64,000 bases of DNA from Verrucomicrobiota bacterium (GCA_038214755.1 JBBQRQ010000008.1:1-64000); one strand, 5' to 3'. Positions 16,140 to 40,822 are shown, numbered from the stretch's first letter. The notes: generated by a model not told the origin, from the letters alone. Numbers and translations: made by a program.

Positions 16140-17075
16140 ATGACAACGCTTGCTCTGCCCTCGCCCGCAAAACGTTTCCAATCGATGCGCGCAATCGTCC
16201 CGACGGTTGATCAGGTGATGATTGAGGAACGAGCGGCGGCGTTCACGAAACGAAGCATCAAAACGAGCGCGAAACTCGCCGGTTTGAAAATGGCGGTGTC
16301 GATGATGGATCTCACGACGCTCGAAGGAAAAGATACGCCGGGAAAAGTTGCGTATCTCTGCCAGAAGGCGCTGCATCCGCTGGAGGCGAAATACGACGTG
16401 CCGAGTTGCGGCGCGGTTTGCGTTTATCCGAACATGGTGAAGTACGCGCGAAAATTTCTCGGAGAAAATTCGCCGGTTCATGTCGCATCCGTCGCGACTG
16501 GATTTCCCAGCGGCCAGGTTCCATTGCGCGTGAAGCTCGAAGAAACCCGCCGCGCCGCCGGCGATGGCGCGGACGAAATCGACATGGTGATTGATCGCGG
16601 CGCATTTCTCTCGGGAGATCACGGAAAAGTTTTTGACGAAATCGCCGCGGTGAAACAAGCCTGCGGCGTCGCCCATCTCAAAGTCATTTTGGAAACCGGC
16701 GAGTTGGTGACTTACGACAACGTGCGCCTCGCCAGCCAGATCGCGATGGAAGCCGGTGGAGATTTTATCAAAACTTCGACCGGCAAAGTTTCACCCGCGG
16801 CGACGATTCCGGTCACGCTCGTGATGCTCGAAGCAATTCGCGATTATTTTTTTGCGACAGGCATTCGCATCGGAATGAAACCCGCCGGCGGCATTCGCAA
16901 TTCCAAGCAGGCTTTGGCCTATCTCGTGATGGTCAAAGAAACCCTCGGCGACGATTGGCTCACGCCGGATTTATTTCGCTTCGGCGCGAGCACACTGGTC
17001 AACGACGTCCTCATGCAAATCGTCAAAACCGTGGACGGAAATTATCAAAGCCTCGATTACTTTTCGCTGCCGTGA
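16140..17075 (+). CDS. deoC: Deoxyribose-phosphate aldolase
   Basis: DLTTL, AVCVYP, GADEIDMV, KVILETG, FIKTSTGK, KPAGG, RFGAS. Confidence 0.95.
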   Translation: MTTLALPSPAKRFQSMRAIVPTVDQVMIEERAAAFTKRSIKTSAKLAGLKMAVSMMDLTTLEGKDTPGKVAYLCQKALHPLEAKYDVPSCGAVCVYPNMVKYARKFLGENSPVHVASVATGFPSGQVPLRVKLEETRRAAGDGADEIDMVIDRGAFLSGDHGKVFDEIAAVKQACGVAHLKVILETGELVTYDNVRLASQIAMEAGGDFIKTSTGKVSPAATIPVTLVMLEAIRDYFFATGIRIGMKPAGGIRNSKQALAYLVMVKETLGDDWLTPDLFRFGASTLVNDVLMQIVKTVDGNYQSLDYFSLP

Positions 17076-17093
17076 GTTGAACGATCCGCAGTC

Positions 17094-17402
17094 ATGATTG
17101 AAGAAATTCGAGAAAAGTTCTAAAGCGGCTTGGTGGAATATTCGTTGCATGCCGTCCGGCAAATGATTTTGCGGAACGTCGTCACGAATGAAGTTTTGCA
17201 ATGCGTATTGGCAGGCGAAGTGGTTGAAGATTATCCTGAAGATAAATATGGGCCGAGTTGTTTGATTTCCGGTAGAACGGCGGAGGGTCGAGCGTTGCAT
17301 GTCCAATGCACCCATCCCAGCCGCCCGCTCATCAAAGTCGTCACGGCTTATGAACCTGATCCCGCAGAGTGGAGCGAGAATTTAAAAGAAAGAAAACAAT
17401 GA
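17094..17402 (+). pseudogene. DUF4258-family toxin with in-frame stop at codon 10
   Basis: MIEEIREKF*SGLVEYSLHA...EDYPEDKYGPSCLI..LHV..VVTAYEPDP; TAA at 17121-17123. Confidence 0.8.
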
Positions 17403-17635
17403 AAACACACGACTGGAAAGAAACCTTTGAAGAACGCGTTGTCACCTACACCCAAGAAGTGGGCGGACGCTTCGTCATCATTGAACATGTTCCCTGTCGG
17501 GTCTGCCGCGAGACCGGCGAACAATTGTTCGCGCCGGAAACCGTGGATCGGTTGCAAGCGATTATTCGTTCGCACGTCAAACCCGCGCGCGTTCTGGAAA
17601 CGCCCGTCTATGAATTCTCCGCCGTTGCAGCTTGA
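17399..17635 (+). CDS. YgiT/MqsA-type zinc-finger antitoxin
   Basis: IIEHVPCRVCRETGEQLF; overlaps the DUF4258 stop. Confidence 0.85.
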   Translation: MKTHDWKETFEERVVTYTQEVGGRFVIIEHVPCRVCRETGEQLFAPETVDRLQAIIRSHVKPARVLETPVYEFSAVAA

Positions 17636-17694
17636 AACTCAAAACGCGAATGAAACTGGAAAAGCGTTCGTTTGTTCCATGGGAAAAAAACCCC

Positions 17695-17823
17695 GGCGAC
17701 GACTGGCTCACGCCCGACCTGTTCCGCTTCGGCGCGAGCACGCTCGGCAACGACGCACTCATGCAAATCGTTAAAACCGTGGACGGAAATTATCAAAGCC
17801 TCGATTACTTTTCGCTGCCGTGA
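17695..17823 (+). pseudogene. Diverged second copy of deoC 3' end
   Basis: 129 nt aligning to 16947-17075; last 51 nt identical. Confidence 0.95.
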
Positions 17824-18857
17824 GCAAGGAAGAAAATAATCCATCCGGGCTAATCCTCTACCAAACTGAGGATGGCCGGACGCGCGTGGAGTGCCGATTT
17901 GAGAATAAGAATGTCTGGTTGACGCAGAAGTTGATGGCGGAGTTGTTTCAAAAAGATGTCCGCACCATCAACGAACACATCCAAAATGTTTTCGAGGAAG
18001 GCGAGTTGTCGCCGGATTCAGTTATCCGGAATTTCCGGATAACTGCGGTGGACGGCAAAACCTACGCGACGAACCATTACAGTCTCGACCTCATCCTCGC
18101 CGTTGGCTATCGCGTGAAATCACCGCGCGGCACGCAGTTTCGCCAATGGGCCACGGCGCGGCTCAAGGAATATCTCGTCAAAGGTTTCACGATGGATGAC
18201 GAGCGATTGAAGCAGGGCGGTGGCGGTGATTATTTCGACGAATTGCTCCAGCGCATTCGGGAAATTCGTCTTTCGGAGCGCAATTTCTACCGGAAAATTT
18301 GCGACATTTATCAGACGAGCGTGGATTACGATCCCGACGTGGAAATGACGCGGCGATTTTTTCAGGCCGTGCAAAATAAGATGCACTGGGCAGCGCACGG
18401 ACACACGGCGGCGGAAATCATCCATCAGCGCGCCGATGCGACCAAACCGAACGCCGGTTTGACTTCGTGGCGCGGCGCGAAGCCACGGAAAGCCGATGCG
18501 TCTGTCGCCAAGAATTATCTCACGGAAGACGAATTGAAGCGGCTTGGCCTGATTGTCAGCCAGTATCTCGACTTCGCGGAGTTGCAGGCGTTGGATCGTC
18601 GCCAGATGACCATGCGTGATTGGATTGCGAAGCTCGATGCTTTCCTCGGTGCAGGCGGACAGAAAATTCTCAACCACGGTGGAAATATTTCTGCCGAAGA
18701 CGCGAAGCTGAAAGCGGAATTGGAGTTCGACAAATTTGAAGTGAAGCGTCGCGGTCTCGAAGATGCCCAGGTCAACGCAGAGTTCGCGAAGCAAGTGGAA
18801 GATCTGGCGAAGCAAACAAAACAATTCGCGCCGCTGAAACGAAAGCCGAAGAAGTGA
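17820..18857 (+). CDS. rhuM: RhuM-family protein
   Basis: WLTQKLMAELF, YSLDLILAVGYRVKS.RGTQFRQWA, VQNKMHWA. Confidence 0.9.
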   Translation: MSKEENNPSGLILYQTEDGRTRVECRFENKNVWLTQKLMAELFQKDVRTINEHIQNVFEEGELSPDSVIRNFRITAVDGKTYATNHYSLDLILAVGYRVKSPRGTQFRQWATARLKEYLVKGFTMDDERLKQGGGGDYFDELLQRIREIRLSERNFYRKICDIYQTSVDYDPDVEMTRRFFQAVQNKMHWAAHGHTAAEIIHQRADATKPNAGLTSWRGAKPRKADASVAKNYLTEDELKRLGLIVSQYLDFAELQALDRRQMTMRDWIAKLDAFLGAGGQKILNHGGNISAEDAKLKAELEFDKFEVKRRGLEDAQVNAEFAKQVEDLAKQTKQFAPLKRKPKK

Positions 18858-18886
18858 GATGACGAAGGACACTTGCTTTCCCACGC

Positions 18887-21016
18887 ATGGACTCAAAAGA
18901 AATCCAAGTCAAAGCCCTTCAGTTGTTGCGCCAATCCACCGGCGATTCACAAGCGACGTTCCGTTCTGGCCAACTTGAAGCAATCGAACATTTGATTGAA
19001 CGACGCGGTCCGCTTCTGGTTGTGCAACGCACCGGTTGGGGCAAGAGCAACGTCTATTTTATCGCTGCAAAACTCCTGCGCGAACAACAAGCCGGGCCAA
19101 CACTGATCATTTCTCCATTGCTGGCGTTGATGCGAAATCAAATCACTGCCGCTGAACGCGCGGGTGTCCGCGCTGTTCGAGTCACGTCGGAGGAAAAGAA
19201 CCGCGACGATTGGGGACGCATCCGTGATGAACTGCTCGCCGACCGCGTGGACGTTTTGCTCATTTCACCGGAGCGGTTGGGCAACGAGGAATTTGTGCAG
19301 ACGATGTTGCAGCCGGTTGCGGCGCGCATTGGCTTGCTCGTGGTGGACGAGGCGCATTGCATTTCGGATTGGGGACACGACTTCCGCCCGGACTACCGCC
19401 GCATCACGCGCATCCTGAAATCGTTGCCGCCAAATGTTCGCGTGCTCGCGACGACAGCGACGGCGAATGATCGCGTCGTGGCTGATTTGAAATCGCAACT
19501 TGGCGCGGCGCTCACGGTTCAGCGCGGTAAACTGGCGCGGGCAAGTTTGCAACTGCAAAATATTTCTCTTCCCAGTGAAATCGCCCGACTGGCCTGGCTC
19601 GCGCACACGTTGCCCAAACTTCCCGGCAGCGGTGTGATTTACACGCTGACCATCCGCGACGCGCGCACGGTGGCTGCGTGGTTGCGCGAAAATGGTATTG
19701 ATGCTGAACCATATTGGGGCGGGCTGGATGAAGAACTCGGACAACCCGGCTTGCGCGAGCGGCTTGAAGCGCGTCTGCTCCGCAACGAACTTAAAGCGCT
19801 CGTCGCCACCACCGCGCTCGGCATGGGCTTTGATAAACCCGATCTCGCATTTGTCATTCACTATCAACTTCCCGGTTCTGTGGTGCATTACTATCAACAA
19901 GTGGGTCGTGCCGGCCGCGCGTTGCCTGATGCCTTTGCGGTGTTGCTCGGCGGTGGCGGCGACAGCGACATCACAGACCACTTCATCGAGACCGCATTTC
20001 CGCCGCGTGAGTTGGTTGAAAAAATTCTCTCGCAACTCGACGCTGCGCCCGACGGACTGACGCTCGGTGAGTTGCAAATCAAACTGAACGCTCCGCGCGG
20101 GCGTTTGGATCACGCGCTGAAATTGCTTTCACTCGAATCACCTGCGCCGCTCTTGAAACTCGATAGCCATTGGAAACGCACCTCCGCGCTCCTCGCTCCA
20201 TCGTTTTGGGAACGCGTCGAGCGGCTCACGGAACTTCGCAAGCGCGAACAAACCCGGATGTGCGAATACCTTCACGCGCGTTCTTGTCTCATGCAATTTC
20301 TCGCCCGCGAACTGGATGAAGACGACGCGCCGCGATGCGGACGTTGCTCGGTTTGTCGCGGTGAACCATTGCTGGCCGAACAATTTACTCCGACGTTTGC
20401 CGAACGCGCCGCGCAATTTCTCCAACGCACCCATCATCCGATAAAGCCCCGCAAATTGTGGCCGAAGGACGCCTTCAGCACTTACCAGTTCACGGGAAAA
20501 ATTTCAGAATCGCTCCGTGCCGAAACGGGTCGCGTGCTGGCGATTTGGGGCGACGCGGGGTGGGGCGATTTGGTGCGCGCGGGAAAATATTCCACCACCA
20601 ACCGCTTCGATGACCGTCTGGTTGCCGCTGTCATAGAGATGATCCACGAATGGAATCCGCAGCCGCAGCCAGCATGGGTGACGTATGTACCGTCGTTGAA
20701 TCGCACAACCCTTGTTGCCGAATTTGCCGAACGGCTGGCGAACCATTTGAAACTGCCCTTTCATTCCGTGTTGCAAAAAACTCGACCCTCGCCGCCACAG
20801 AAAGAAATGCAAAACAGTTTTCAACAGGCGCACAATCTCGACGGCGCGTTCACGGTCAAGCCGGGCGTTGGTTTTACAAAGCCGGTAATGTTGGTGGACG
20901 ACATGGTGGATAGCGGCTGGACGTTTACGGTTTGCGCCGCGCTGCTTCGGCAGGCGGGCAGCGGGCCGGTGTTCCCCATCGCGCTTGCGCAAACCAGCAA
21001 ATCTGACGAAACTTGA
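18887..21016 (+). CDS. RecQ-like DEAH helicase with C-terminal phosphoribosyltransferase (ComF-like) domain
   Basis: TGWGKS, DEAHCISDWGHDFRPDY, QQVGRAGR, Zn motif CGRCSVC, LVDDMVDSGWT. Confidence 0.9.
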   Translation: MDSKEIQVKALQLLRQSTGDSQATFRSGQLEAIEHLIERRGPLLVVQRTGWGKSNVYFIAAKLLREQQAGPTLIISPLLALMRNQITAAERAGVRAVRVTSEEKNRDDWGRIRDELLADRVDVLLISPERLGNEEFVQTMLQPVAARIGLLVVDEAHCISDWGHDFRPDYRRITRILKSLPPNVRVLATTATANDRVVADLKSQLGAALTVQRGKLARASLQLQNISLPSEIARLAWLAHTLPKLPGSGVIYTLTIRDARTVAAWLRENGIDAEPYWGGLDEELGQPGLRERLEARLLRNELKALVATTALGMGFDKPDLAFVIHYQLPGSVVHYYQQVGRAGRALPDAFAVLLGGGGDSDITDHFIETAFPPRELVEKILSQLDAAPDGLTLGELQIKLNAPRGRLDHALKLLSLESPAPLLKLDSHWKRTSALLAPSFWERVERLTELRKREQTRMCEYLHARSCLMQFLARELDEDDAPRCGRCSVCRGEPLLAEQFTPTFAERAAQFLQRTHHPIKPRKLWPKDAFSTYQFTGKISESLRAETGRVLAIWGDAGWGDLVRAGKYSTTNRFDDRLVAAVIEMIHEWNPQPQPAWVTYVPSLNRTTLVAEFAERLANHLKLPFHSVLQKTRPSPPQKEMQNSFQQAHNLDGAFTVKPGVGFTKPVMLVDDMVDSGWTFTVCAALLRQAGSGPVFPIALAQTSKSDET

Positions 21017-21021
21017 AACCC

Positions 21022-22080
21022 ATGAACGCCAACCCGCTTTCACCCGCAACACAGGTTACGCTGCTATTGTGTTCGCCGTTGCGCGCCGGGCGGAACAAGG
21101 ACGTTCGGACGTTGAATATCGGCGAGTTCAATGAACTGGAAAAGCAGCTGCTACGTCTCGGTGCGCCGCTGGAACAGTTGCTCGAAACGGACGCTGCGAC
21201 GCTGCTTAAAAAGATTTCTCCGGCGATGGATGGGGCAAAAATCGAAACTCTGTTGGGACGCGGCTTCATGTTGAGTATGGCCGTTGAAATGTGGCAAAGC
21301 GCGGGCGTATGGGTCACCAGTCGCAATGAAACTGATTACCCGGAACGCCTGCATCGCCTGAAACAAAATACTCCACCATTGCTTTACGGTTGCGGCGAAA
21401 AAAAACTTTTGTCGCGCGGCGGACTCGCGATTGTTGGATCACGTGATGTGGACGAGGCGGGCGAAGAATTTGCCAAACGCGCGGCGGCATCTGCGGCGCG
21501 CGAAGACGTGCAGGTTGTATCGGGAGGCGCGCGCGGTGTGGACCAATTCGCGATGTTGGCCGCGCTCGAAGTCGGTGGGACAGTTGTAGGCGTACTCGCA
21601 GATAGTCTTTTGCGGTCAGCTACATCTGGCCATGCGCGTGAAGCAATTCAAGACGGACGGCTCACGCTTGTCTCGGCATTCGATCCTGAAGCTGGATTCA
21701 ATGTCGGCAATGCGATGCAACGCAACAAACACATTTATGCGCTGGCCGATTTTGGGCTGGTCGTAAGTTCCGGCTACAATGAAGGCGGCACATGGTCGGG
21801 CGCGATTGAGCAATTGGAAAAACTTCGTCTCACCCCAATCTTTGTTCGCGGCGGCGACGATGTGCCGGAAGGGAATCGCCAGTTGCTTCGACGTGACGCG
21901 TTGCCATTTTTGCCAGAACCGTGGCCAGCTTCGTTGCGCGAATTTTTTGGAGCGTTGTCGCAAAAGAAAGTTCAGTCGATGGAGACAGCCGACTTGTTCG
22001 CTCTACATGAAACACCGCTCAAATATCATAGCAGCCGACGTGAGGAGGCTCTGAATTCTTCGCGAAAACGAAAGCATTGA
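21022..22080 (+). CDS. dprA: DprA/Smf-family protein
   Basis: PPLLYG.G, AIVGSR, VSGGARGVD, AMQRN, GGTWSGA. Confidence 0.88.
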   Translation: MNANPLSPATQVTLLLCSPLRAGRNKDVRTLNIGEFNELEKQLLRLGAPLEQLLETDAATLLKKISPAMDGAKIETLLGRGFMLSMAVEMWQSAGVWVTSRNETDYPERLHRLKQNTPPLLYGCGEKKLLSRGGLAIVGSRDVDEAGEEFAKRAAASAAREDVQVVSGGARGVDQFAMLAALEVGGTVVGVLADSLLRSATSGHAREAIQDGRLTLVSAFDPEAGFNVGNAMQRNKHIYALADFGLVVSSGYNEGGTWSGAIEQLEKLRLTPIFVRGGDDVPEGNRQLLRRDALPFLPEPWPASLREFFGALSQKKVQSMETADLFALHETPLKYHSSRREEALNSSRKRKH

Positions 22081-22081
22081 A

Positions 22082-23689
22082 ATGAAAACTAAACTCAAGC
22101 CCGTCACCCGCAAACTTTCCGCCAAGCGTGCGCTTGCCACCATTTCGTTACAGCCTGTCGTGCCAGTCAAAGATCGTCGTCTGAATTTTGGCGACAAATG
22201 GGATTACGCGCCCGCGCCGGAAACGGTGCCGGTGAAAATTCAGCCGCGCTACGAATTGTTCATCAACGGGAAATTCACCGCGCCGAGTTCTGGAAAATAT
22301 TTTGAGTCGATCAATCCTGCGACCGAACAAAAACTTTCGGACATCGCAGCGGCGAATGGAGCGGATGTGGATGTGGCTGTGAAATCGGCGCGGCGCGCTT
22401 ATGAAAAAGTTTGGAGCAAAATGTCGGGACGCGAGCGCGGCAAATATCTTTACCGCATCGCGCGCATCATTCAGGAAAAGTCGCGCGAACTCGCCATGAT
22501 GGAAACGATGGATGGCGGCAAAACCATCAAGGAAAGCCGCGACATCGATCTGCCGCTCGTGGCCGCGCACTTTTTTTACTACGCCGGTTGGGCGGATAAA
22601 CTGAAATACGCGTTTCCCGGAAAAACTCCGCAACCGCTCGGCGTCGCGGGACAAATTATTCCGTGGAATTTTCCCTTGCTCATGGCCGCGTGGAAAATTG
22701 CTCCGGCCCTCGCGTGCGGAAATACCGTTGTTTTAAAGCCCGCCGAAACCACCAGCATCACCGCGATGCATCTCGCGCAAATTTTTCAGGAAGCCGAATT
22801 GCCTGAAGGCGTGGTGAACATCGTAACTGGCGCGGGCGAAACCGGCGCGGCCATCGTCAATCATCCTGAGATCAACAAAATCGCGTTCACTGGCAGCACG
22901 GAGGTGGGGAAGGCGATTGCGAAAAGCATTGCGAATAGGAGCGCGGACAGCCATGTCCGCGAGAACCAAAACGGCGGAAAACACGCGGACAAGGCTGTCT
23001 GCGCTCCTCGTCTCACGCTCGAACTCGGCGGCAAAGCGGCGAACATTATTTTCGAAGACGCCCCGATTGATCAAGCCGTCGAAGGAATTATTTCCGGAAT
23101 TTATTTTAATCAAGGCCACGTCTGCTGCGCCGGTTCGCGTCTGCTCGTGCAGGAAGGAATTTTCCGGACCGTGATTCGCAAGTTGCGCGACCGCATCGCC
23201 ACGTTGCGCGTTGGAAATCCGCTCGATAAAAACACCGACATCGGCGCGATCAATTCGCGGATGCAACTCGAAAAAATCCGCGAGCTGGTGCAAAGCGGCG
23301 TCGATGAAGGTGCTGAATTGGTGCAGCCGCGCTGCGCGTTGCCGGAAAAAGGTTATTGGTATCCGCCAAGTTTTCTAACGGGTGTCACCGCGTCGCATCG
23401 CATCGCGCAGGAAGAAATTTTCGGCCCGGTGTTGAGCGTGATGACCTTTCGCACACCGGAAGAAGCGTTCGAGCGCGCGAACAATACGCCCTACGGATTG
23501 AGCGCCGGCGTCTGGACCGACAAAGGCAGCAAGATTTTCAAGATGGTCAACAAACTCCGCGCCGGCGTCGTCTGGGCAAACACGTTTAACAAGTTCGATC
23601 CGACAAGTCCGTTCGGCGGGTACAAAGAAAGTGGATTTGGCCGTGAAGGTGGTTTGCAAGGACTCGCCGCTTACTGCCGACTCGACTAA
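22082..23689 (+). CDS. NAD-dependent aldehyde dehydrogenase containing an in-frame repeat insertion
   Basis: IPWNFP, FTGST, LELGGK, GHVCCAG, EEIFGPV, FGGYKESG. Confidence 0.93.
   Translation: MKTKLKPVTRKLSAKRALATISLQPVVPVKDRRLNFGDKWDYAPAPETVPVKIQPRYELFINGKFTAPSSGKYFESINPATEQKLSDIAAANGADVDVAVKSARRAYEKVWSKMSGRERGKYLYRIARIIQEKSRELAMMETMDGGKTIKESRDIDLPLVAAHFFYYAGWADKLKYAFPGKTPQPLGVAGQIIPWNFPLLMAAWKIAPALACGNTVVLKPAETTSITAMHLAQIFQEAELPEGVVNIVTGAGETGAAIVNHPEINKIAFTGSTEVGKAIAKSIANRSADSHVRENQNGGKHADKAVCAPRLTLELGGKAANIIFEDAPIDQAVEGIISGIYFNQGHVCCAGSRLLVQEGIFRTVIRKLRDRIATLRVGNPLDKNTDIGAINSRMQLEKIRELVQSGVDEGAELVQPRCALPEKGYWYPPSFLTGVTASHRIAQEEIFGPVLSVMTFRTPEEAFERANNTPYGLSAGVWTDKGSKIFKMVNKLRAGVVWANTFNKFDPTSPFGGYKESGFGREGGLQGLAAYCRLD
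22937..23008. repeat. Palindromic family C element inside the ALDH ORF
   Basis: AGGAGCGCGGACAGCCATGTCCGCG...CGCGGACAAGGCTGTCTGCGCTCCT; intergenic relatives at 40969, 48802, 56289. Confidence 0.92.
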
Positions 23690-23701
23690 ATCGCAAAATT
23701 C

Positions 23702-24368
23702 TTGTTGTCATCTGTGAACGAAGCCGTGTGCGAATTCCCATTCCAAATCAAGGCGGAAGGCGCAGCGCAAATGGCGACGCTGCACTTTGCGACCCAAGTC
23801 GAACTACGTCGTTATCATCGCAGCCTGTCGCCATTCGCGCGCGAGGCTTCCACAGTCGTTCGGGAAGCCGTCGAATTCACCCGGCTTGCCGCCAAACGGT
23901 GGCGTTATTATTTCCACACTGATGAAGCCGCCGAGAGTTTTGCCGCTGCAACGCGAAATTCACCGCCACCCAAAATGCGAAGTCGCCTTCATTATGGTTG
24001 CCACGATTCGGCAGGCGAACCGCGACTTGCCGGTTGACCTCGCCTATTGCCGACGAACCTGGTGTCATCACCTTGCGCTTGATTTCCTCGCGTTGCATCC
24101 GGGCGCGCTGGCGCGAAACTGGCGGGTGAGCGGCGTAGGCAGCGGCATCGTATTCGGACTGGTTCAATTGGCGAACGCGTTGAACATTTCGCGCATCTGG
24201 GGCGAGGCCACGGTGAATTCTGCTCCGTTCTACGAAAAGCTGCTGGCCGTTTCTCCCGTTCAAGATTTGTTCCTCATCGAAGCGCCGGAGATGGCGGCCA
24301 TTACCAAACGGCAGGAAAAAATCAGCCATCCAACTCTTGTCACCAAAACCACAACTGAACTACATTGA
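23702..24368 (+). pseudogene. Probable GNAT-fold toxin, apparently frameshifted near 23945
   Basis: Overlapping ORFs 23702..24037 and 23787..24368; C-terminal LDFLALHP..SGVGSG..GEATVNSAPFYEKL resembles GNAT motifs. Confidence 0.55.
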
Positions 24369-24377
24369 CGCCGTGAC

Positions 24378-24570
24378 AGTGAAACGCACAAAGCCAGTGA
24401 GCCTTGAAGAACTCTGGGATTACGAAGCAAGGCATCCCGTGGTCTTCGCCTCGCCTCGTGCCTTGGCCGATGCACGGTTGATTGCCAAACTGGAGCGCAC
24501 GACACGGAATCACCGTCGCAGCACACACCGCAATGGTGTTGCCCATCGCCGTAAAGCCGTGTCCGCCTGA
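24378..24570 (+). CDS. Small basic protein, possible antitoxin partner
   Basis: Short ORF right after the GNAT-like gene; start uncertain. Confidence 0.4.
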
Positions 24571-24579
24571 AAAAGTAGC

Positions 24580-24675
24580 GCTGGCGTCGTCTGAGCGAAC
24601 ACGTTCAACAAATTCGATCCGACAAGTCCGTTTGGTGGATACAAAGAAAGCGTCTTCGGTTGCGAGGGTGGACTG
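24580..24675 (+). pseudogene. Diverged second copy of ALDH 3' region
   Basis: 96 nt aligning to 23561-23656 (AGVV*ANTFNKFDPTSPFGGYKES..). Confidence 0.93.
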
Positions 24676-30158: not shown

Positions 30159-30223
30159 TTGAGAAGTAAATCCCACAACGTTTGCCGTTTGCAATTTCCA
30201 TCCTGGCGCGAAACACTTTCTCG

Positions 30224-32507: not shown

Positions 32508-32778
32508 ACCGGGCACTACTTGGAAACGCTGGGCGAAACACCGCACGAACGCCGAACTTCAAGCCATCTCCGAACGGCTGGAGCAACTCAAAGAAGATTT
32601 CGGCAAACCGCACCAACATGCCGGCCTTGGGGTCCGGCGTTTGTCTCAACATTTTTTTGAGTTTAGAATCTCCCGCGACGTGCGCGTCGTTTTCGCATTG
32701 ATCAAACCAAACATCATTCGTCTGGCTATGTGCGGCAATCACAATGAAGTCAGAAACTGGATCAAAGAAAATTCTTAA
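32491..32778 (+). CDS. RelE/YafQ-like toxin
   Basis: FGKPHQHAGLGVRRL..FEFRISRDVRVVF..GNHNEV; overlaps antitoxin. Confidence 0.7.
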   Translation: MAFAVEPGTTWKRWAKHRTNAELQAISERLEQLKEDFGKPHQHAGLGVRRLSQHFFEFRISRDVRVVFALIKPNIIRLAMCGNHNEVRNWIKENS

Positions 32779-32813
32779 TCATTGGGATTGTCGCGATGGA
32801 TTGGACATTCAAA

Positions 32814-33033
32814 TCATGCCTTCAACTTCGCGATCAAATCCTTGCTCTCCACCGTATCCCCGACTTGCGCGAAGATTTTATCCACTGTTCCGTCCGCCGA
32901 CGTTGCCGAAATCGCGGTTGAATTTTGTAAACTCAGCAAAAACTTCGGGATACATCAAATGGCTGTAAAGATCATCCTCGGTCGCCTCGCGTTTCAATTT
33001 GCCGGAAATTTCTTCGCGAACTTTTTTCAAGTT
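32814..33033 (-). pseudogene. Diverged, internally deleted copy of pyc 3' end
   Basis: 32814-32902 aligns to 36818-36906; about 32895-33033 aligns to 37264-37402. Confidence 0.95.
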
Positions 33034-33065
33034 GGCGGGTCTGCAATGCGCGCTCGGACGGTCAA

Positions 33066-34054
33066 TCAACGTTCCTTTATCCCAGTAAAAAATACGATTG
33101 TTTCGACTTTTTCCTGCCACTTCAAATTACCTTGCCACCGCAGCAGTGGCGGGATGACTTTTTGAAATTTTTCGGGGGCGTCCTCGAAATAAATCACTTC
33201 AACATTTTCCAATTCAAGAATAGCGGACTTGTCGGCCTTGACGATTTCCCAAAAATCAGACTCCCTGAGAGCAAATATCTCTTTGCAATCAGCGAACATT
33301 TTTATTTGCTCTGCCAGCGATGCGACTCGGATGTTTGAAAGTGGTTTGGTTGCACGAGCCGTCAACTCAACCTGATGGAGTTTCCCGTTGATTCCAAACC
33401 CGACTCGCAAGCCGCCGTAGTAATGCCCAGTCACAACTCGATACCCATCAATCGCGCGCCGGAAAAATACATGCCGGGAAACGACGCGCGTCGGTTTGTT
33501 GTATGAGTCGCGTTCTGTTTTTTCAAAGACGTAATCCAACCTCTCCGCGGTAGGATGTTTCATCAAATCCACATCTTTATTCAGTCCAAGAAGCTGCGCC
33601 ATTTCCAATCCGCGTCGCACGGTTTCTTCTTCTCCCGGTGCTGCTCCGGTAACATTAGTGATTGCGCCAAGACACCGTATCGAATCCATCCTTGGGCGGG
33701 GATAATCGTCAGCGTGTGTGTCTGTTCCAAACTTCCATAGTATTTAACTCCCGGAGTTCCGAACACTCCTCGGTTATTTCCTTTGAAAGTCTTTTGTGAA
33801 TCAAGCCCTCCCATTCTCAAAAGAGTAGCGATGGTTGCTGGCGATAACTGACGCGGGACGACGCTCTGCACTGCGATCTGGTCAGGAATTTTGCATCTCA
33901 GCAGTTCTTTCGTGGAAACGACTTTGGGGCAAAACCGCACCGGCTCGCCTAAACTTCTTAATGCTTTGCGAGAGGCCTGCTCGTAATCCGAAGCCAACGC
34001 TTGCCCAACCGACAGCCATACCACCAAAAGGCTGCAACTCCATCGCGTCATCAT
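33066..34054 (-). pseudogene. Secreted hypothetical protein, probably one gene split by a frameshift near 33675
   Basis: Overlapping ORFs 33581..34054 (signal peptide) and 33066..33689 (none). Confidence 0.5.
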
Positions 34055-36330
34055 TGCGGCGTGTAAACGGTTGTCTTGTCGAAGTGAAGATTTTCAACTG
34101 AGCGACCGGCCAAACTGAAATTGGCTGAGAAGGGCTGGAATCTGTCGGTTAAGGTGTAAGCTCCGCTTTCTTGGCGAGCGTCCCAATATAGATAGCTCAT
34201 TATGACCGTATGATCGATCAGAGGTTTTCCCCTTTTTCGGCGGCTCTCATTTTCAGCCGCGTGCGCGCGTCGCCCGGCTTCCACCCAGGCGTTGATGACG
34301 GTCATAGGTGTGCCGTTTAATTCTCCTTGTAGACCTTGCGCCCAAAGCCTGCCCATTGTTGGGTAAATGTAGATGGTCGATCCAGTGGCAAGATACACAT
34401 TCAAGGAAGCGCTCATCGGCCAAAAGCCCCGTTCCTTCACACCCCCCGCCCAACGGGTTTGCGTCAAAGCATTGCACCCGTAGTAGCCCATCCACTTAAG
34501 AAATTGGCTTCCGAATCTCATTTCCGCATCGGGAACCCATGTGTAACCATTGGTGTTCTGGCTGCTGTTGTACAAAGGATAGCTTGCCAGCGAACCAAAC
34601 GTCCCTGAGGGCCAGCCGGGTGGATTATATTCAACGGTGTGTCCGGCTAAAATGCCGATGTTACAGCCCGAATTAAATTTGCTGTTAAGCGAATTAATTC
34701 CCTGAGGAGTCTTGCCCGCGCCCACAAGATTGGTTTTGGTGAGTGCATCATCAATCAGATGAAAATTATTCCTCCAAGAAGGAAATTTCGTGGATTTCGC
34801 CCCCTGCGCCATTTTATCTATGAACCCTTTTGCAACGGCCGTTGCGTTCTGTAGCGGCCCATACGCCCACGCCGTTTTAGGATGATGCCCCTGCGAACCT
34901 GCGCCAGTCACGCCGACAAACGACATTTGGGTGCGGCCGGGCTCTCGGTGAGGATCTCGGGTGGTTTGATTAGTTTGGCTTCCTGCAACCGCAGGTTGAA
35001 ACGCATCGAGATTTTCTGATGATAACGTGGTGGGTTCGATTGAACTTTTCGCAACGGCTGGAGTTTTCTGAAAAGAAGGATTAGCGCTTAGTTGAGCGAT
35101 CATGCCCGGCGGCAGCGGTGGCAACTCCGGCTCCATTAGTTGGCTACCCCGTGCAGCTTCATTAGCTTTTAATGCGGCCTTGCGTGCCACAAACCACGGA
35201 ACCCGCTTCGCACGATGAGCAAGAGCCGAAGAAGCAGCAGAATCTATTGGCAATGGAATCGAGAAATAGCCATTTTTAATTGGTTTTTCTACAAATGATT
35301 TTGCTCCTTCGATGGCGGAACCTGACTCAGTGCTCTGCAATGACCCCGGAGCCGGTGGCGGGTCACTCGGCGGTGAATTCGTGTCTTCGCCTTCGCTGGA
35401 TTGGCCCCCTCCAATAACCGCTGCGGTCAAAATGTAATCATAATATCCCGGCGGATAAAAATTGTTAAAGCCGTCGGAGCCGTCCCATTCCCCATAGATT
35501 TCCGTTCCCGTGCCCGTTATCATTTTTACCGTATTCTCATTCTCGTCCACGATTTCAACGCTCCAATCGCAATTAAGAACAAGGTTTGCGTAAACGATTT
35601 GCTCTTCTGGAAAAGAAGGATCAAAAGGATCAAAGAATGGATTCACAATAGTGAAGTCTTGAATCAAATTATCGAAATGAAGCGTGATTGGCGCAGAACA
35701 TCCGACATCGAGATTGCCGCTGGTGTCGTCACCTGCGCCGCCCGTCGTTTCCCCGGACGTAGCAAGTTCAACGGTGGCATGGATTACATGATCTCCATTA
35801 ATCCATTCGCATGTATTTATGGAGAACTGGAAAGAATCAACGTCCGTTTCTTCATCGACTCGTTGTCCGTCAACATAGAGGCGAATCCAACCTACCTGAT
35901 TGGTTGTGTTAACGGTTACTTCGACGATCAAATTGCTGCTGACTGTCGCATTGTTCGTTGGCGCAACGATGGAAATCGAAACAGGCGCGTTCGTGGATTG
36001 CGCGACTTGCCGCACTCGATAAAAACGATGAGGCCTGTCAGCGGGGTGAAGGATTCGGTTTAACGCAGTCGGGTCACCATAATCGAGCCACGTCGTATTT
36101 GTGCCTTGCGAAACAATGCGTTGTTCCCTCGGGATAAACGCCAAATTGCCATCCTGATCTACTGCCGAAAGATTTCCCACAGACTGAACCTCATACACCG
36201 CGCCGGTTTCACTCTGCCAATGCAGTTGAATGGATAAATCGTCGAAGACGCGAGGCTGTTTGAGCACGGGTTGCGCGAGAAGCGGCGAGGCGGCGATTGA
36301 GAAGAGAAGAATGAGTTGGTTACGTTTCAT
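34051..36330 (-). CDS. Large secreted multidomain protein: terminal-type domain, Ig-like/FlgD-like domains, C-terminal His-Cys (DUF6345-like) domain
   Basis: Signal peptide; LYVDGQ, WDGSDG..GYYDY; AGH...FGSQFLKWMGYYGCNAL. Confidence 0.6.
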   Translation of the reverse strand: MKRNQLILLFSIAASPLLAQPVLKQPRVFDDLSIQLHWQSETGAVYEVQSVGNLSAVDQDGNLAFIPREQRIVSQGTNTTWLDYGDPTALNRILHPADRPHRFYRVRQVAQSTNAPVSISIVAPTNNATVSSNLIVEVTVNTTNQVGWIRLYVDGQRVDEETDVDSFQFSINTCEWINGDHVIHATVELATSGETTGGAGDDTSGNLDVGCSAPITLHFDNLIQDFTIVNPFFDPFDPSFPEEQIVYANLVLNCDWSVEIVDENENTVKMITGTGTEIYGEWDGSDGFNNFYPPGYYDYILTAAVIGGGQSSEGEDTNSPPSDPPPAPGSLQSTESGSAIEGAKSFVEKPIKNGYFSIPLPIDSAASSALAHRAKRVPWFVARKAALKANEAARGSQLMEPELPPLPPGMIAQLSANPSFQKTPAVAKSSIEPTTLSSENLDAFQPAVAGSQTNQTTRDPHREPGRTQMSFVGVTGAGSQGHHPKTAWAYGPLQNATAVAKGFIDKMAQGAKSTKFPSWRNNFHLIDDALTKTNLVGAGKTPQGINSLNSKFNSGCNIGILAGHTVEYNPPGWPSGTFGSLASYPLYNSSQNTNGYTWVPDAEMRFGSQFLKWMGYYGCNALTQTRWAGGVKERGFWPMSASLNVYLATGSTIYIYPTMGRLWAQGLQGELNGTPMTVINAWVEAGRRAHAAENESRRKRGKPLIDHTVIMSYLYWDARQESGAYTLTDRFQPFSANFSLAGRSVENLHFDKTTVYTPQ

Positions 36331-36483
36331 ATTTAAGTTTTTTTTGGAAATCCATACGAATCCTCGCTCGGCAATTTTCACGGTTGCGCGGCCACTCTCC
36401 GCGGTCTGCGTAAGTGAAGCAAGCACAAAACTTAGCCTGCGGGTTATGGCCGGTTTTTTTGCTGCTTGTTTCTGTAATCGCCC

Positions 36484-36726
36484 GTGTCAGAAATTCCACA
36501 ACATCGACTTGCCGTCGCCAAAACGATTCGCAAGTATCGGCTCAAAGCGGATTGGAGTCAGGAAAAACTCGCAGAAATGGCGGACCTTCATCCCGTTCAT
36601 ATTAGCAATCTGGAACACGGGAAAAAAAATATTTCTTTGGACACGCTCGTGAAAGTCGCCGACGCGTTGGGAGTTCAATTGTCCCAGTTGGTTCGCAATG
36701 TTCAGCCAAAAGAGAAGAACGACTAG
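36484..36726 (+). CDS. XRE-family HTH regulator
   Basis: WSQEKLAEMADLHPVHISNLEHGKKNISL. Confidence 0.9.
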   Translation: MSEIPQHRLAVAKTIRKYRLKADWSQEKLAEMADLHPVHISNLEHGKKNISLDTLVKVADALGVQLSQLVRNVQPKEKND

Positions 36727-36817
36727 AGGCGTGGGATTGTATCTCCGGTAAACGACTTGCGATTTTAAGTGGGTGTAACTGGTATATGACACACGTTCGG
36801 AATCGGCGCTTTGATTC

Positions 36818-39800
36818 TTATCCCTTCAACTTCACGATCAAATCCTTGCTCTCCACCGTGTCGCCGACTTGCGCGAAAATTTTGTCCACCGTCCCGTCCG
36901 CTGACGCGTAAATTGTCGTCTGCATTTTCATCGCTTCCATCGTGAGCAGCTTGTCGCCTTTCGCCACTTTCGCTCCAACGGTGGCGTTGACTGTTGTAAT
37001 CAAACCGGGAATCGGCGCGCCGATTTGCAATGGGTCGGCGGGATCGGCTTTGAGACGCGGCTTGGTTTTTGGCTGGACAGAACGATCTTGAATTGCCGTT
37101 TCGCGCGACATGCCGTTTAATTCAAAGGTGACAATTCTGCGCCCGTCCTTGTCCACTTGTCCGATGTTGATGAGACGAATAAAAAGCGTTTTGCCTTCTT
37201 CGATGTCCACGGAAACTTCCTCGCCCGGTTTCAGTCCATAAAAAAAGGCGGGAGTCGGCAACACGCCCACATCGCTGAAATCGCGATTGAATTTTGTGAA
37301 CTCAGCAAAAACGTCGGGATACATCAAATGGCTGTAAAGATCGTCTGCGGTCGCTTCGCGTTTCAATTTCCCGGAAATTTCTTCGCGAACTTTTTTCAAA
37401 TTCAGCGGTTTCAAATTCGCGCCTGGCCTGGTCGTCATCGGCTTTTGATTTCCCAAAACGACTTGCTGCAATTTTTTCGGCCAGCCGCCAAGAGGTTGTC
37501 CGAGATTGCCCATGAGCATGTCGATGACGGACTCGGGAAATGGCGTGGCGCCCGGTTCCAAATTCAAAACATCCGCCGGCTTGATGCCGCGCGTGATCAA
37601 AAACATCGCCATGTCTCCGACGACTTTGCTGCTCGGCGTGACTTTGACAATGTCGCCGAAAAGTTGGTTTACCTCGGCGTAAGTGCGCGCTATTTCCGGC
37701 CAGCGATTTCCCAGACCCATGCTCGCCGCTTGCTCCTTGAGATTCGTGTATTGGCCGCCCGGCATTTCGTGCAGATAAACTTCCGCGCTGCCACTGCGCG
37801 GGGCGGTGTCGAACGGTTTGTAAAATTGCTGAACGTGCTCCCAGTAATCGGAAAATTCATCGAGCGTTTCCAAATTCAATTCGGTGTCGCGCGGAGTATT
37901 TTTCAGCGCGGCCACGAGCGAATTCAAATTCGGCTGGCTCGTTGAACCACTCATTGACGCAATCGCCAAATCCACCACATCCACATTCGCGTCGCTGGCG
38001 CGCAAAATTGCGGAGGCGTTGATCCCGCTTGAATCGTGCGTGTGAAAGTGAATGGGAATTCCGATTTCTTCTTTCAACGCTTTGACCAATTGAAAGGCGG
38101 CGTACGGCCGGCACAATCCGGCCATGTCTTTGATCGCGAGAAAATGCGCGCCCATCCGTTCGAGTTCCTTCGCGAGGTTCACATAATATTTCAGAGAATA
38201 TTTTGTGCGCTTCGGGTCGAGAATATCGCCGGTGTAACAAATGGCCGGTTCGCAAATCGCCCGCGTTTTCTGCACCGCCTCCATCGCGACTTTCAAATTC
38301 GGCGTGTAATTGAGCGAATCGAAAATCCGAAAAATATCGATGCCCGCTTCCGCGGAATGCTTTACAAAACCGGCGACGACATTGTCGGGATAATTGGAAT
38401 AGCCCACCGCATTCGAGCCACGAAAAAGCATTTGGAAACAGATGTTGGGAATGCGTTCGCGAAGTTGGCGGAGCCTTTTCCACGGGTCTTCGTGGAGAAA
38501 ACGCATCGCGGTATCGAAGGTCGCGCCGCCCCACATTTCCAAACTGAAAAGTTCCGGCGTGCGGCGAGCCACTGCGCCTGCAATCGCGAGCATGTCGTAG
38601 GAACGAACGCGCGTGGCGAGGAGCGATTGGTGCGCGTCACGAAACGTAGTGTCGGTGATGAGCAAACGTTTTTGTTTCAGCGTCCATTCGGCAAATTTTT
38701 TCGGGCCAAGTTCAATAAGGAGTTGGCGCGTGCCCTTCGTTGGAATTTGTTTGTGGTCGTAAGTAGGAGGAGTCGCTGGCGTCAGCGCCTTTTGCGGGAG
38801 GTAACCTTTGGCTTGCGGATTGCCGTTGATGATGACGTCGCCTAAAAAATTCAGAAGCTTGGTCGCGCGGTCGCGGCGCGGCTTGAACTTGAACAACTCC
38901 GGCGTGGTGTCGATGAGTGTAGTGGTCGCAAATCCATCGCGAAAAACTTTGTTGTGAATGACATTCTCAAGAAAGGGGATGTTCGTCTTGACTCCGCGAA
39001 TTCTGAATTCCCGCAAGACGCGATCCATGCGTTGCAGCGCCATGTGAAAATCCTGGCCGCTCGCCGTAATTTTCACGAGCAATGAATCGTAAAACGGCGT
39101 GATGACAGAACCGGCGTAACCCATGCCGCCGTCCAAACGAACACCAAAGCCGCCCGCTGATCGATAGGTCAAAATTTTTCCGTAATCGGGCGTGAATTTA
39201 TTTTCCGGATCTTCCGTGGTGACGCGGCATTGCACGGCGCAACCGTTGCGTGGAATTTTTTCCTGAGGCGGCAAATTAATTTCCGGCCCGTGCAAAGCGA
39301 ATCCTTGCGCGATCAAGATTTGCGCCCGCACCAAATCGATTCCCGTGATGACTTCGGTCACGGTGTGCTCGACCTGGATGCGTGGATTCATCTCGATGAA
39401 AAACCATTCCTTCGAGTCGAGGTTGTAGAGAAATTCAATCGTGCCCGCGTTGTCGTAACGAACTTCCTTCGCCATGCGCACCGCCGCGTCGCAAAGTTCA
39501 CCGCGCACTTTTTCGTCGAGAGCAATGGACGGAGCGATCTCGATCACTTTTTGGTGGCGGCGCTGCACGGAGCAATCGCGTTCGTGCAGATGCAAAACAT
39601 TTCCGTGTTTGTCGCCGAGGATTTGCACTTCGATGTGTTTGGCGCGCGGAATATATTTTTCCAAAAACACGGCGGAATTTCCGAAAGCGCGTTCGGCTTC
39701 ACTGCGCGCTTCGTCGAGGAGATTTTGCAAATCGCCCGCTTTGTGAACGACGCGCATCCCGCGTCCGCCGCCACCGAAAGCGGCTTTGATGATGAGTGGG

Positions 39801-40330
39801 AAACCAATTTCCTTCCCGATTTTCAGGGCGGTGTCGCGATTTTCAATCGGCTCTTCCGTCCCCGACAAAGTCGGCACGCCGATTTTTTTCGCGAGACCGC
39901 GCGCGGCCGTTTTGTCGCCCATCAATTCGAGCAGTTCAGGACGCGGGCCGACGAAAACGATTCCTGCCTTTTCGCAAGCACGAGCGAACTGCGCATTTTC
40001 CGCGAGAAAACCGTAGCCGGGATGAATGAGGTCGATTTCTTTTTCTTTGGCGAGCGAGACAATTCCGTCGATGTCGAGATACGCGCCGACCGGCCCTTTG
40101 CCCTGGCCAACGAGATAGGCTTCATCGGCTTTGAAACGGTGAATGGAGAGTCGATCTTCCTGCGCGTAAATGGCGACGGTGCGCAGACCGAGTTCGGTGG
40201 CCGCGCGAAAAATGCGGATGGAAATTTCACTGCGATTGGCGGCGAGCAGTTTTTTAAAAGGGCGGTTTGCTGAAGCTGGTTTTTGCTCTGGGGAAGTTTT
40301 GGTTTTGCTCACAGCTTTTTGCGCGGACAT
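36818..40330 (-). CDS. pyc: Pyruvate carboxylase
   Basis: Biotin carboxylase (ANRSEI, GGGGRGMR), carboxyltransferase (RDAHQS, HTHD) and EAMKM biotinyl domain. Confidence 0.97.
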   Translation of the reverse strand: MSAQKAVSKTKTSPEQKPASANRPFKKLLAANRSEISIRIFRAATELGLRTVAIYAQEDRLSIHRFKADEAYLVGQGKGPVGAYLDIDGIVSLAKEKEIDLIHPGYGFLAENAQFARACEKAGIVFVGPRPELLELMGDKTAARGLAKKIGVPTLSGTEEPIENRDTALKIGKEIGFPLIIKAAFGGGGRGMRVVHKAGDLQNLLDEARSEAERAFGNSAVFLEKYIPRAKHIEVQILGDKHGNVLHLHERDCSVQRRHQKVIEIAPSIALDEKVRGELCDAAVRMAKEVRYDNAGTIEFLYNLDSKEWFFIEMNPRIQVEHTVTEVITGIDLVRAQILIAQGFALHGPEINLPPQEKIPRNGCAVQCRVTTEDPENKFTPDYGKILTYRSAGGFGVRLDGGMGYAGSVITPFYDSLLVKITASGQDFHMALQRMDRVLREFRIRGVKTNIPFLENVIHNKVFRDGFATTTLIDTTPELFKFKPRRDRATKLLNFLGDVIINGNPQAKGYLPQKALTPATPPTYDHKQIPTKGTRQLLIELGPKKFAEWTLKQKRLLITDTTFRDAHQSLLATRVRSYDMLAIAGAVARRTPELFSLEMWGGATFDTAMRFLHEDPWKRLRQLRERIPNICFQMLFRGSNAVGYSNYPDNVVAGFVKHSAEAGIDIFRIFDSLNYTPNLKVAMEAVQKTRAICEPAICYTGDILDPKRTKYSLKYYVNLAKELERMGAHFLAIKDMAGLCRPYAAFQLVKALKEEIGIPIHFHTHDSSGINASAILRASDANVDVVDLAIASMSGSTSQPNLNSLVAALKNTPRDTELNLETLDEFSDYWEHVQQFYKPFDTAPRSGSAEVYLHEMPGGQYTNLKEQAASMGLGNRWPEIARTYAEVNQLFGDIVKVTPSSKVVGDMAMFLITRGIKPADVLNLEPGATPFPESVIDMLMGNLGQPLGGWPKKLQQVVLGNQKPMTTRPGANLKPLNLKKVREEISGKLKREATADDLYSHLMYPDVFAEFTKFNRDFSDVGVLPTPAFFYGLKPGEEVSVDIEEGKTLFIRLINIGQVDKDGRRIVTFELNGMSRETAIQDRSVQPKTKPRLKADPADPLQIGAPIPGLITTVNATVGAKVAKGDKLLTMEAMKMQTTIYASADGTVDKIFAQVGDTVESKDLIVKLKG

Positions 40331-40394
40331 AAAGTTCGCGTGTTTATACGGGCGAAAGCCGGGTTTGGCAAAATTTTTCCGGGAAAACTGCCGG

Positions 40395-40730
40395 TCAAGA
40401 CTGCGAGTCCGTTGAGTCTTCTGACACAGAGAAAAAGCGTCTCCAATCCTGAGCGGCGTGAAGAATCCGCACCACCATGATTGTCGCTTGAAACGGCTGA
40501 TAAAAAATCAAGCAATTGCGAAATTGCGGCACGACGATCCAACGGATTTTCGCATGACGAGGAGCAGCGTTGCGAATGCGATTCCCAATTCAGGATGTTG
40601 AGCGAGCAAATCGGCGCTATCGAGGATCACTTGACGGACGCGTTGGGCAGCTTCGAGGTTATCCGCGCGAATCTGGTTGGAGATATTTTCCAAGTCGTTC
40701 TGCGCTTTCGGGCTAAGTTTAGCACGACTC
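40395..40730 (-). pseudogene. Frameshifted ParE-family toxin, no antitoxin
   Basis: LSPKAQNDLENI..HPELG / RIRN..VPQFRNCLIFY..VVRILHAAQDW; frameshift near 40582. Confidence 0.8.
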
Positions 40731-40822
40731 GAATCTCTGTTAACGCGACGCATCCAATTTCAGAATGGAAATTTCACTGCGATTGGGCGCTAAAAAAATT
40801 TCCAACGCGCGCGCCCACCAAG

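Follow-up and report, generated by a model that had tools for sequence, protein, structure and literature searches.

Toxin-antitoxin and defence cassettes between genes and diverged copies of their ends in a Verrucomicrobiota genome: probable scars of homology-anchored acquisition

Integrative elements can insert at gene 3' ends and replace the end with one of their own, like prophage e14 at icd and as is known from the accretion of integrative and conjugative elements (ICE) and cis-mobilizable elements (CIME). In Neisseria, minimal mobile elements are hotspots flanked by core genes, and their content is exchanged by homologous recombination. Here we compare with such systems a series of small cassettes found in a 64,000-nucleotide stretch of Verrucomicrobiota bacterium GCA_038214755.1 (JBBQRQ010000008.1:1-64000, the first 64 kb of contig C8, hereafter the window), each set between an intact gene and a truncated, diverged copy of the end of that gene, which we call a stub. 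Two published systems are close to this arrangement. Insertion with long target duplication has been described for restriction-modification (RM) inserts of less than 20 kb without mobility genes, mostly in naturally competent species (Furuta, Abe and Kobayashi 2010, PMC2853133); the passages of that paper considered here describe direct repeats, 30-420 bp long, that align to one copy of the empty-site genome, propose a life cycle through the repeats, and cite Nobusato et al. 2000 as reference 37. Sequential displacement of the kind produced by homology-facilitated illegitimate recombination (HFIR) has been reported, with an explicit analogy to integrons, at type VI secretion system effector-immunity and rhs loci (Kirchberger et al. 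2017, PMC5361080, whose reference list includes Jackson et al. 2009, de Vries and Wackernagel 2002 and Prudhomme et al. 2002). For chromosomal toxin-antitoxin (TA) systems, Belot et al. 2026 (PMC13617665) describe the integration mechanisms as poorly characterised and propose entry mediated by mobile genetic elements followed by spread through recombination at flanking core genes; stubs are unmentioned in the passages of that paper considered here.

The genome (G000) is a draft of 5.1 Mb in 175 contigs from an uncultured soil/sediment bacterium, and the sole sequencing run with strong coverage of the window (X1) is a sediment metagenome, 17 other runs containing small shares of it. Gene identities were taken from Pfam, and the cargo was also scanned with NCBIfam and PADLOC. 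For comparison we used genomes of the same genus (n=8 for the Gfo check) and of other families of the order, labelled G001 onwards. Nucleotide self-comparison of the window recovered the layout of intact gene, cargo and 5'-truncated copy of the gene's 3' end at all four loci where a previous reading of the sequence alone had reported it, namely deoC, aldehyde dehydrogenase (ALDH), Gfo/Idh/MocA and pyruvate carboxylase (pyc), with blastn E values of 8e-21 to 5e-49 for the four pairs. The direct repeats measure 87-153 nt and gene and stub lie 0.6-3.9 kb apart:

16140..17075, + strand: deoC-family aldolase gene, intact (Pfam DeoC, E 1.8e-21); the gene copy of repeat 1 is its last 141 nt (16935-17076)
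17684..17824, + strand: deoC 3'-end stub, 5'-truncated with the TGA kept; 90% identity over 142 nt to 16935-17076
22082..23689, + strand: ALDH gene, intact (Pfam Aldedh, E 8e-157); the gene copy of repeat 2 is 23559-23652
24578..24671, + strand: ALDH 3'-end stub; 83% over 94 nt to 23559-23652
29121..30350, - strand: Gfo/Idh/MocA oxidoreductase gene, intact (Pfam); the gene copy of the repeat is 29121-29273
28254..28405, - strand: Gfo/Idh/MocA 3'-end stub; 78% to 29121-29273, with TGA ending both copies
36818..40330, - strand: pyc gene, intact (Pfam)
32816..33053, - strand: pyc 3'-end stub, split into two blocks; its stop codon is TGA, that of the gene TAA

In the deoC pair the homology ends one base past the TGA in both copies, the final 57 nt are identical, and identity is clustered (p=0.0135). 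The ALDH stub contains an internal TGA in frame and stops 37 nt short of the gene's end. The pyc stub aligns in two blocks (36820-36906 with 32816-32902, 90%; 37264-37402 with 32895-33033, 91%) and therefore carries a 365-nt internal deletion. The sequence-only reading had called the four targets housekeeping genes. This description does not suit Gfo, since the gene was not found in the eight same-genus genomes; its best relatives, none of them close, are in G009 (77%, an unpublished genome) and G011 (about 70%).

The same reading had suggested a genome-wide self-comparison, and this showed that the window is no exception. By self-BLAST we collected local direct repeats of at most 450 nt and at most 10 kb apart, in which one copy ends an open reading frame (ORF) of at least 150 aa and the other lies downstream; 59 pairs had this geometry, with repeat arrays at thrS, ilvD and gyrB. 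In 35 of the 59 pairs (33 genes) the stub has retained a stop codon at the corresponding position, which in 14 of those 35 differs from the stop codon of the gene. Around the stop of these 35 pairs, identity averages 25.3 of 30 positions before it and 3.8 of 15, which is chance level, after it. The median cargo length is about 0.75 kb, and the target genes include gyrB, ilvD/edd, thrS, thiC, ftsK, a mqnC/cofH-type gene and pheT. When symmetric filters were applied, 38 pairs had a 3'-terminal copy with a downstream stub and 23 were mirror pairs with a gene-start stub upstream, part of this 5' class being antisense-ORF echoes of the 3' class, compared with 7 and 10 pairs in the control geometries. 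As a separate observation, an inverted extra copy of the thrS 3' end (0.9 kb; G000:C42:38405-39319, 86% to the last ~430 nt of thrS) lies about 18 kb from thrS on the same contig.

The cargo of the window consists of short units, some of which lie outside the four gene-stub pairs:

17077..17683, + strand: cassette 1 (deoC); DUF4258 toxin-like gene 17130-17402 (Pfam E 4e-23) and an ORF of no family, 17427-17774, running into the stub
17820..22080, + strand: further cargo of the deoC-ALDH slot; RhuM gene 17820-18857, PsyrT-like RecQ helicase-phosphoribosyltransferase gene 18887-21016, PsyrA-like DprA-fold gene 21013-22080
23690..24577, + strand: cassette 2 (ALDH); a unit of two genes without known family, 23702-24368 (with a frameshift near 23946) and 24337-24570
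27716..28173, - strand: ParE toxin gene 27716-27976 (Pfam ParE, E 7e-16) and small upstream ORF 27973-28173, adjoining the Gfo stub
28449..29077, - strand: cassette 3 (Gfo); DUF433 gene 28796-29077 (Pfam E 1e-19) and DUF5615 PIN-like gene 28449-28799 (E 1.8e-12)
32244..32778, + strand: older cassette behind pyc; Phd-like antitoxin gene 32244-32507 (weak Phd matches) and 106-aa ORF 32458-32778
33054..36817, - strand: cassette 4 (pyc); four ORFs, 36487-36792, 34051-36426, 33581-34054 and 33066-33689
40508..40811, - strand: candidate for a fifth, decayed event at the 5' side of pyc, weak; ParE remnant 40508-40753 and a copy of pyc codons ~23-37 (40765-40811)

Adjacent small pairs with a recognised family, as expected of type II TA cargo, are present at deoC (DUF4258), at Gfo (DUF433 and DUF5615), in the ParE unit (27716-27976) and in the Phd-like pair, and absent from the ALDH and pyc cargo. 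The ALDH cargo had been read as a TA pair; it had no Pfam, NCBIfam or PADLOC match and is better described as a two-gene cassette of no known family whose first gene is frameshifted. This gene is coding, since the phase of its third-position mismatches tracks the reading frames of G013, where the ALDH end and cassette 2 are found at 80.6% identity with both ORFs intact (227 aa and 76 aa). Likewise, the regulator and secreted proteins proposed for the pyc cargo were not confirmed: the only domains recognised by the three databases are Big_7 and DUF6345 on the 791-aa ORF, the other ORFs being without family. At deoC, part of the cargo (17385/17357-17663) is present in G005 and G007 at 94-95% identity, followed by a short stub and with the toxin gene missing. 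No stub of its own was found for the ParE unit at 27716..28173. In the possible fifth event, the pyc codon copy amounts to 47 nt at 74% with an exact core of 22 nt, and the ParE fragment matches at E 3e-7.

The further genes of the deoC-ALDH slot match Pfam RhuM at E 1e-110 and, in PADLOC, PDC-S05 at E 7e-143, PsyrT at E 7e-278 and PsyrA at E 6.5e-110. By PADLOC naming, the RhuM-family gene (PDC-S05) and the PsyrT/PsyrA-like pair that follows it (17820-22080) constitute an anti-phage toxin-antitoxin system, and the DprA-fold gene is PsyrA-like, not a competence gene.

Outside the window, the recognised cargo families at the 32 loci fetched belong mostly to TA and defence systems: HigB with a helix-turn-helix partner, ParE, PIN, Phd with PIN, Gp49 with HI1420, DUF4258, DUF5615, AbiEii, SocA, nucleotidyltransferases, TIR and ATPase_2/DUF234, with MNT/HEPN-type units also among the stub-flanked cargo. 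Many of the other ORFs match nothing, and some encode metabolic or secreted proteins. The sequence-only reading had considered this arrangement a main route of TA spread, which is not borne out: of the 63 toxin genes of the PIN, ParE and DUF4258 families, only 10 lie between detectable repeats, a count that misses short or old stubs, against 7.1% of random segments. TA and defence cargo is probably common here as a reflection of its frequency in the accessory pool, and it may in addition resist loss through repeat-mediated deletion. Recent movement of cargo within G000 was also considered and rejected, as no cargo occurs at high identity in two genomic sites and the only matches are three of ~140 nt at 77-82%.

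The comparison with relatives provided empty sites for two of these regions. In G003 and G004, deoC and ALDH are separated by about 14 nt, and both deoC copies of G000 align with the single gene end of those genomes. At pyc, the empty site is G001, which has neither the TA unit nor the stub. The Phd-like unit lies directly behind a pyc-end copy in G003, G004 and G005 (79-81% identity); this copy is the intact gene end in G004 and G005, and in G003 it is 5'-truncated and on another contig. In G005 the unit is followed by an 84-nt pyc stub. In G000, then, cargo and stub precede a pair that is itself a stub-flanked cassette in G005, so that the serial stacking formerly proposed is supported here, as it is by the arrays at thrS, ilvD and gyrB.

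The same gene borders are used again in other genomes. Stubs of deoC were present in five of nine genomes with a readable locus (G000, G005 twice, G006, G007 and G013), and stubs of ALDH in five of six (G000, G005 twice, G011, G013 and G027), all of the latter ending at the stop codon except the 3'-truncated one of G000. Extra copies of the thrS 3' end were found in 11 of the 31 genomes listed, including the unpublished G009. For deoC, ALDH and thrS, the 5' borders of the stubs differ between genomes and families.

The cargo, in turn, is found at other genes. Relatives of the ALDH cargo protein were all in Verrucomicrobiota metagenome-assembled genomes (MAGs). The family was located at 19 loci of other Verrucomicrobiota, and at 10 of these it once more lies between stubs of the local gene, in arrays of three to four. 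Co-travelling of this cargo with ALDH was considered and rejected, as none of the 19 loci has ALDH or deoC in its flanks. The sites are after a PALP-enzyme gene (L063, L065 and L066), where the repeats around the cargo are the end of that upstream gene; before thiS (L067); or adjoining thiC or a LysR gene. In both L065 and L067 the slot from the PALP-enzyme gene to thiS contains TA-type cassettes (MNT/HEPN, HepT, PIN and HI1420-type). Those of L067 (3996-7567) are separated by the thiS start, which occurs four times, the fourth time on the intact gene; these stubs bracket the ALDH-type cargo as well as MNT/HEPN, HepT, PIN and HI1420-type units. L065 (3696-9438) has three copies of the PALP-gene end and two to three thiS-start stubs before the intact thiS, and this slot has therefore been filled from both flanks. 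tRNA or tmRNA fragments were considered as the repeat unit of the public arrays and none was found in eight loci; the unit is the thiS start.

Another aspect to consider is which of the two copies is foreign. The previous reading had predicted that the intact gene would be a mosaic, and this is the case for ALDH, whose last ~90 nt (23600-23689) are of a foreign type, that of another family. Before and after position 23600, identity changes from 91.3% to 80.0% with G005 of the same genus (p=0.002), from 89.8% to 74.4% with G001 (p=0.0002), and from 82.1% to 90.9% with G011 of another family (p=0.045). A second clear mosaic gene end is that of the functional thrS of G005 (C173, L102): its last ~430 nt are 75% identical to G000, against 93% upstream, and group with out-of-family alleles. 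The prediction did not extend to deoC and pyc. Both intact ends are native-type through the stop codon without a foreign segment, and pyc has 79-86% identity to genus relatives over its last 1.2 kb with no switch at the end; therefore the scar cannot be taken in general as the displaced resident end, as had been stated. The mixed polarity fits crossovers at varying positions of the repeats, or mixed histories, better than a single rule.

Differences between gene and stub fall at codon positions 1/2/3 as 2/2/9 in deoC, 1/1/14 in ALDH, 6/9/17 in Gfo and 0/2/7 in the last 87 nt of pyc. The earlier statement that they are mostly synonymous holds for deoC, ALDH and pyc, for which it had been counted, and is less clear for Gfo. 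Pooled over 52 pairs the numbers are 314/206/593, and 25 ungapped pairs contain 202 synonymous and 141 non-synonymous codon differences; indels are present in 27 of the 52 pairs and internal stops in a few stubs. This constraint signal, clear but diluted, would be expected if the copies had diverged as working gene ends and the stubs had then decayed. The divergence of the copies also agrees with the earlier remark that they are not fresh target-site duplications.

As regards mobility genes, the claim that the cassettes are integrase-free could be maintained: no integrase, transposase or reverse transcriptase family matched any of the 75 window ORFs, and no integrase was found in 121 ORFs at the cargo loci, flanking genes and stub ORFs included. 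The genome has five matches to PF00589 (tyrosine recombinase), on other contigs or far from the stub loci. A shared att-like motif at the cargo borders was tried as a candidate and rejected, as no k-mer exceeded the shuffled controls at either border in 34 loci. The arrays have no intI beside them, and the sequence between cassettes consists of gene-end or gene-start copies without a common motif, which is not the structure of an integron; nor do the cassettes contain the integrase or the common identical att core of site-specific elements of gene 3' ends.

Taken together, we consider that these structures are probably scars of the acquisition of foreign cassettes, anchored by homology at conserved gene borders through recombination with the DNA of relatives. 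DNA from a related lineage would bring its allele of the conserved gene end together with the adjoining small accessory unit, would pair with the resident gene end and would be joined to it by host homologous recombination. Closure of the far side could then take two forms: an illegitimate joint within the end of the resident gene (HFIR), or another crossover in a stub that came with the donor unit, as ends-in or Campbell-type integration of a unit or circle made of gene end, cargo and stub. The two forms may alternate. Only products with one intact copy of the gene would survive, either as gene, cargo and 5'-truncated end copy or as the mirror start copy, cargo and gene, and repeated events would stack cassettes. 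Homology would end at the stop codon because the conservation between donor and recipient ends there, not because of cutting by an enzyme. Uptake of DNA and a recA-dependent integration would be part of this process; ComEC and Ku are encoded in the genome. The absence of an integrase and of a junction motif in the ORFs and borders scanned, the dozens of targets, the variable borders, the use of both flanks and the unshared cargo argue against a site-specific system and against intragenomic copy-paste. Of the original inference, recombination with relatives' DNA anchored by homology is thus retained, and the displaced resident end as a general rule and the main TA route are not.

Several observations weigh against this proposal. 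Apart from the native-type ends of deoC and pyc, the outgroup-like 5' half of the deoC stub rests on about four sites: its best match, by a small margin, is an out-of-family allele (73/81, compared with 61-70/81 in the genus), and the 3' part equals the gene at 58 of 59 positions. At thrS, 29 sites place close relatives with the gene and 13 place them with stub 1; the two kinds of site are interspersed, without a clean switch. Identity is clustered (p<0.05) in only 6 of 38 pairs, so that crossover tracts are mostly invisible. A weak match to an IS200-type Y1 transposase, below the cut-off (E 3.8e-4, 21 bits), lies at G000:C10:59253-59945 (L004 371-1063), the sole transposase-like match among the stub-flanked cassettes scanned. 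Finally, neither an excised circle nor an empty-site variant was seen in the X1 contigs, which represent one run and drop rare variants. The longest identical run per pair is 11-79 nt, and at most 20 nt in 13 of the 38. Fine-mapping of a crossover at a 403-nt repeat of an SSF-symporter gene was tried and proved unusable, with the relatives' genes only ~73-75% alike.

A bolder possibility, which we regard as doubtful, is that units of stub, cassette and stub are self-propagating mobile cassettes without integrase in this Verrucomicrobiota order. If so, recombination between gene-end repeats would release a circle with the cargo and one repeat; the circle, or a linear unit, would re-enter any genome with the conserved gene, using the repeat as a homing arm; the TA cargo would penalise loss; and the dozens of core-gene borders would act as a distributed integron without an integrase.

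It is unlikely, although possible for some loci, that the duplications arose in situ, with a cassette taken up where a staggered or resected break lay close to the end of the gene and 50-450 nt of the host's sequence duplicated in the process. The capture could have occurred, for example, by Ku-dependent end joining, and the copies could have diverged later, the gene under selection and with allelic exchange with relatives, the stub neutrally. The codon-position skew of 28/18.5/53%, weaker than for two constrained copies, agrees with this, as do the indels, the few stubs with internal stops, the native-type ends of deoC and pyc, and the near-identity of the repeats in the published RM cases, as far as Tables 2-3 of PMC2853133 go; precise loss between repeats could explain the empty sites. 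However, such a duplication should often carry intergenic bases, and the homology instead falls to chance level right after the stop in 35 loci. Nor would it be expected to yield 14 stubs with a stop codon unlike that of their gene, an ALDH gene end and cargo that both resemble sequences of other families, or a G005 thrS end that groups with out-of-family alleles.

We consider it quite unlikely that the cassettes are site-specific elements that targeted gene 3' ends with a replacement end and that have since lost their integrase or are mobilised by one encoded elsewhere. The layout is that of attL and attR of gene-end integrators, the stacking resembles CIME accretion, five tyrosine recombinase matches exist in the genome, and the deoC pair has an identical core of 57 nt. 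Against this stand the results on integrases and junctions given above, the dozens of different target genes, the variation of stub length at one gene between genomes and the many pairs without an identical run of more than 20 nt; the gene-start mirror class and slots filled from two flanks (L065) suit homology better than a single att site.

It is barely credible that the structures are strain-chimeric joins in a metagenome-assembled genome, although this one is a draft, relatives' contigs often break at gene-end repeats and the X1 contig at deoC breaks within the 57-nt identical tract, because copies that are 78-91% alike share no long k-mers able to mislead an assembler, the Logan contigs of X1, a second assembly, span the structures at ALDH, Gfo and pyc with 0 differences and an even depth of 21-25, independent MAGs share the deoC layout (G005 and G007) and the pyc-TA join (G003, G004 and G005), and named public MAGs have the same architecture. 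X1 is possibly the source sample, and the bridging therefore tests the assembly and not the biology. Contigs of relatives (G003:C441/C329, G004:C1/C212, G008:C57 and G007:C144) often end at or inside gene-end repeats. From a practical point of view, stubs break up short-read MAGs at conserved genes and give rise to spurious small ORFs.

Other repeats of the window were also recorded. Palindromic repeats of ~130-290 nt, similar to miniature inverted-repeat transposable elements (MITE), lie at 15854-16019, 40816-41100, 6353-6455, 8028-8231, 48787-48909, 54529-54599 and 62039-62189; there are dozens of copies in G000 and almost none in genus relatives, and the ORF at 40765-41112, which sits on one of them, is probably spurious. 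A 170-nt direct repeat (78%; 50531-50699 and 57076-57243) has a geometry unlike that of the gene-end stubs: one copy is at the 3' end of the ORF 56476-57264 and the other 6.5 kb upstream, just behind a phosphoesterase gene, with DUF892 and a cox operon between them. Further dispersed repeats of 75-85% identity are at 5397-5562, 60224-60357 and 62036-62224. The 1916-aa ORF at 41703-47453 has 12 domains of DUF7507, CARDB and DUF11, with internal repeats of 64-82% identity.

The value of this data set lies in some 50 stub-flanked cassettes in 5.1 Mb, in gene borders reused across families, in arrays with two flanks and in mosaic gene ends. They suggest that recombination by the host at the borders of conserved genes is one real route for TA and defence islets, and the loci are well suited to compare HFIR with ends-in integration.

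As compared with known systems, the window loci share with e14 and with ICE and CIME the order of intact gene, element and displaced end fragment, as well as the tandem accretion; they differ in that they lack an integrase and a common att core, their stub borders vary, and they include a gene-start mirror class. With minimal mobile elements, and with the general idea put forward for TA islets in PMC13617665, they share small accessory units between conserved genes, with cargo that varies between strains and spread by host recombination; in those, a double crossover in both flanks leaves no duplication, and here each addition leaves a stub. The resemblance to the insertion with long target duplication, in the terms of the passages of PMC2853133 considered, is considerable: relatives provide empty sites with aligned flanks (deoC/ALDH and pyc), the repeats exceed 30 bp and match one empty-site copy, the inserts are below 20 kb and free of mobility genes, and the cargo is selfish or addictive. 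However, instead of RM systems the cargo comprises TA and defence units together with small unknown genes; the repeats consist of the ends or starts of genes, and their homology stops at the stop codon; similarity between copies is 70-97%, with a third-position bias, while the published copies are mostly near-identical; and about 50 loci occur in one genome, in arrays of up to four stubs. As in the loci described in the corresponding parts of PMC5361080, the anchor is conserved homology upstream, the cargo comes with a new 3' module, the old 3' piece is displaced downstream as an orphan, and stacking proceeds without an integrase. There, however, the variable 3' end is itself the payload (the toxin domain); here it is the downstream cassette that forms the payload, the replaced end still coding for the same protein, and the targets are ordinary metabolic and informational genes (deoC, ALDH, pyc, thrS, gyrB, ilvD and pheT). 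No description of TA cassettes flanked by gene-end duplicates was found in the literature, judged mostly by titles and the beginnings of abstracts, and the term "long target duplication" is absent from PMC4615327. The sequence-only reading had named one-sided HFIR as known from transformation experiments and had taken the serial stacking at gene ends, as a main TA route, to be undescribed; since both long target duplication and HFIR displacement are in print, to the extent of the passages considered, the mechanism is not new in kind. What is new here is the density in this genome, the TA and defence cargo at the ends of ordinary genes, the homology that stops sharply at the stop codon with altered stops, the recurrence across families and the two-sided arrays.

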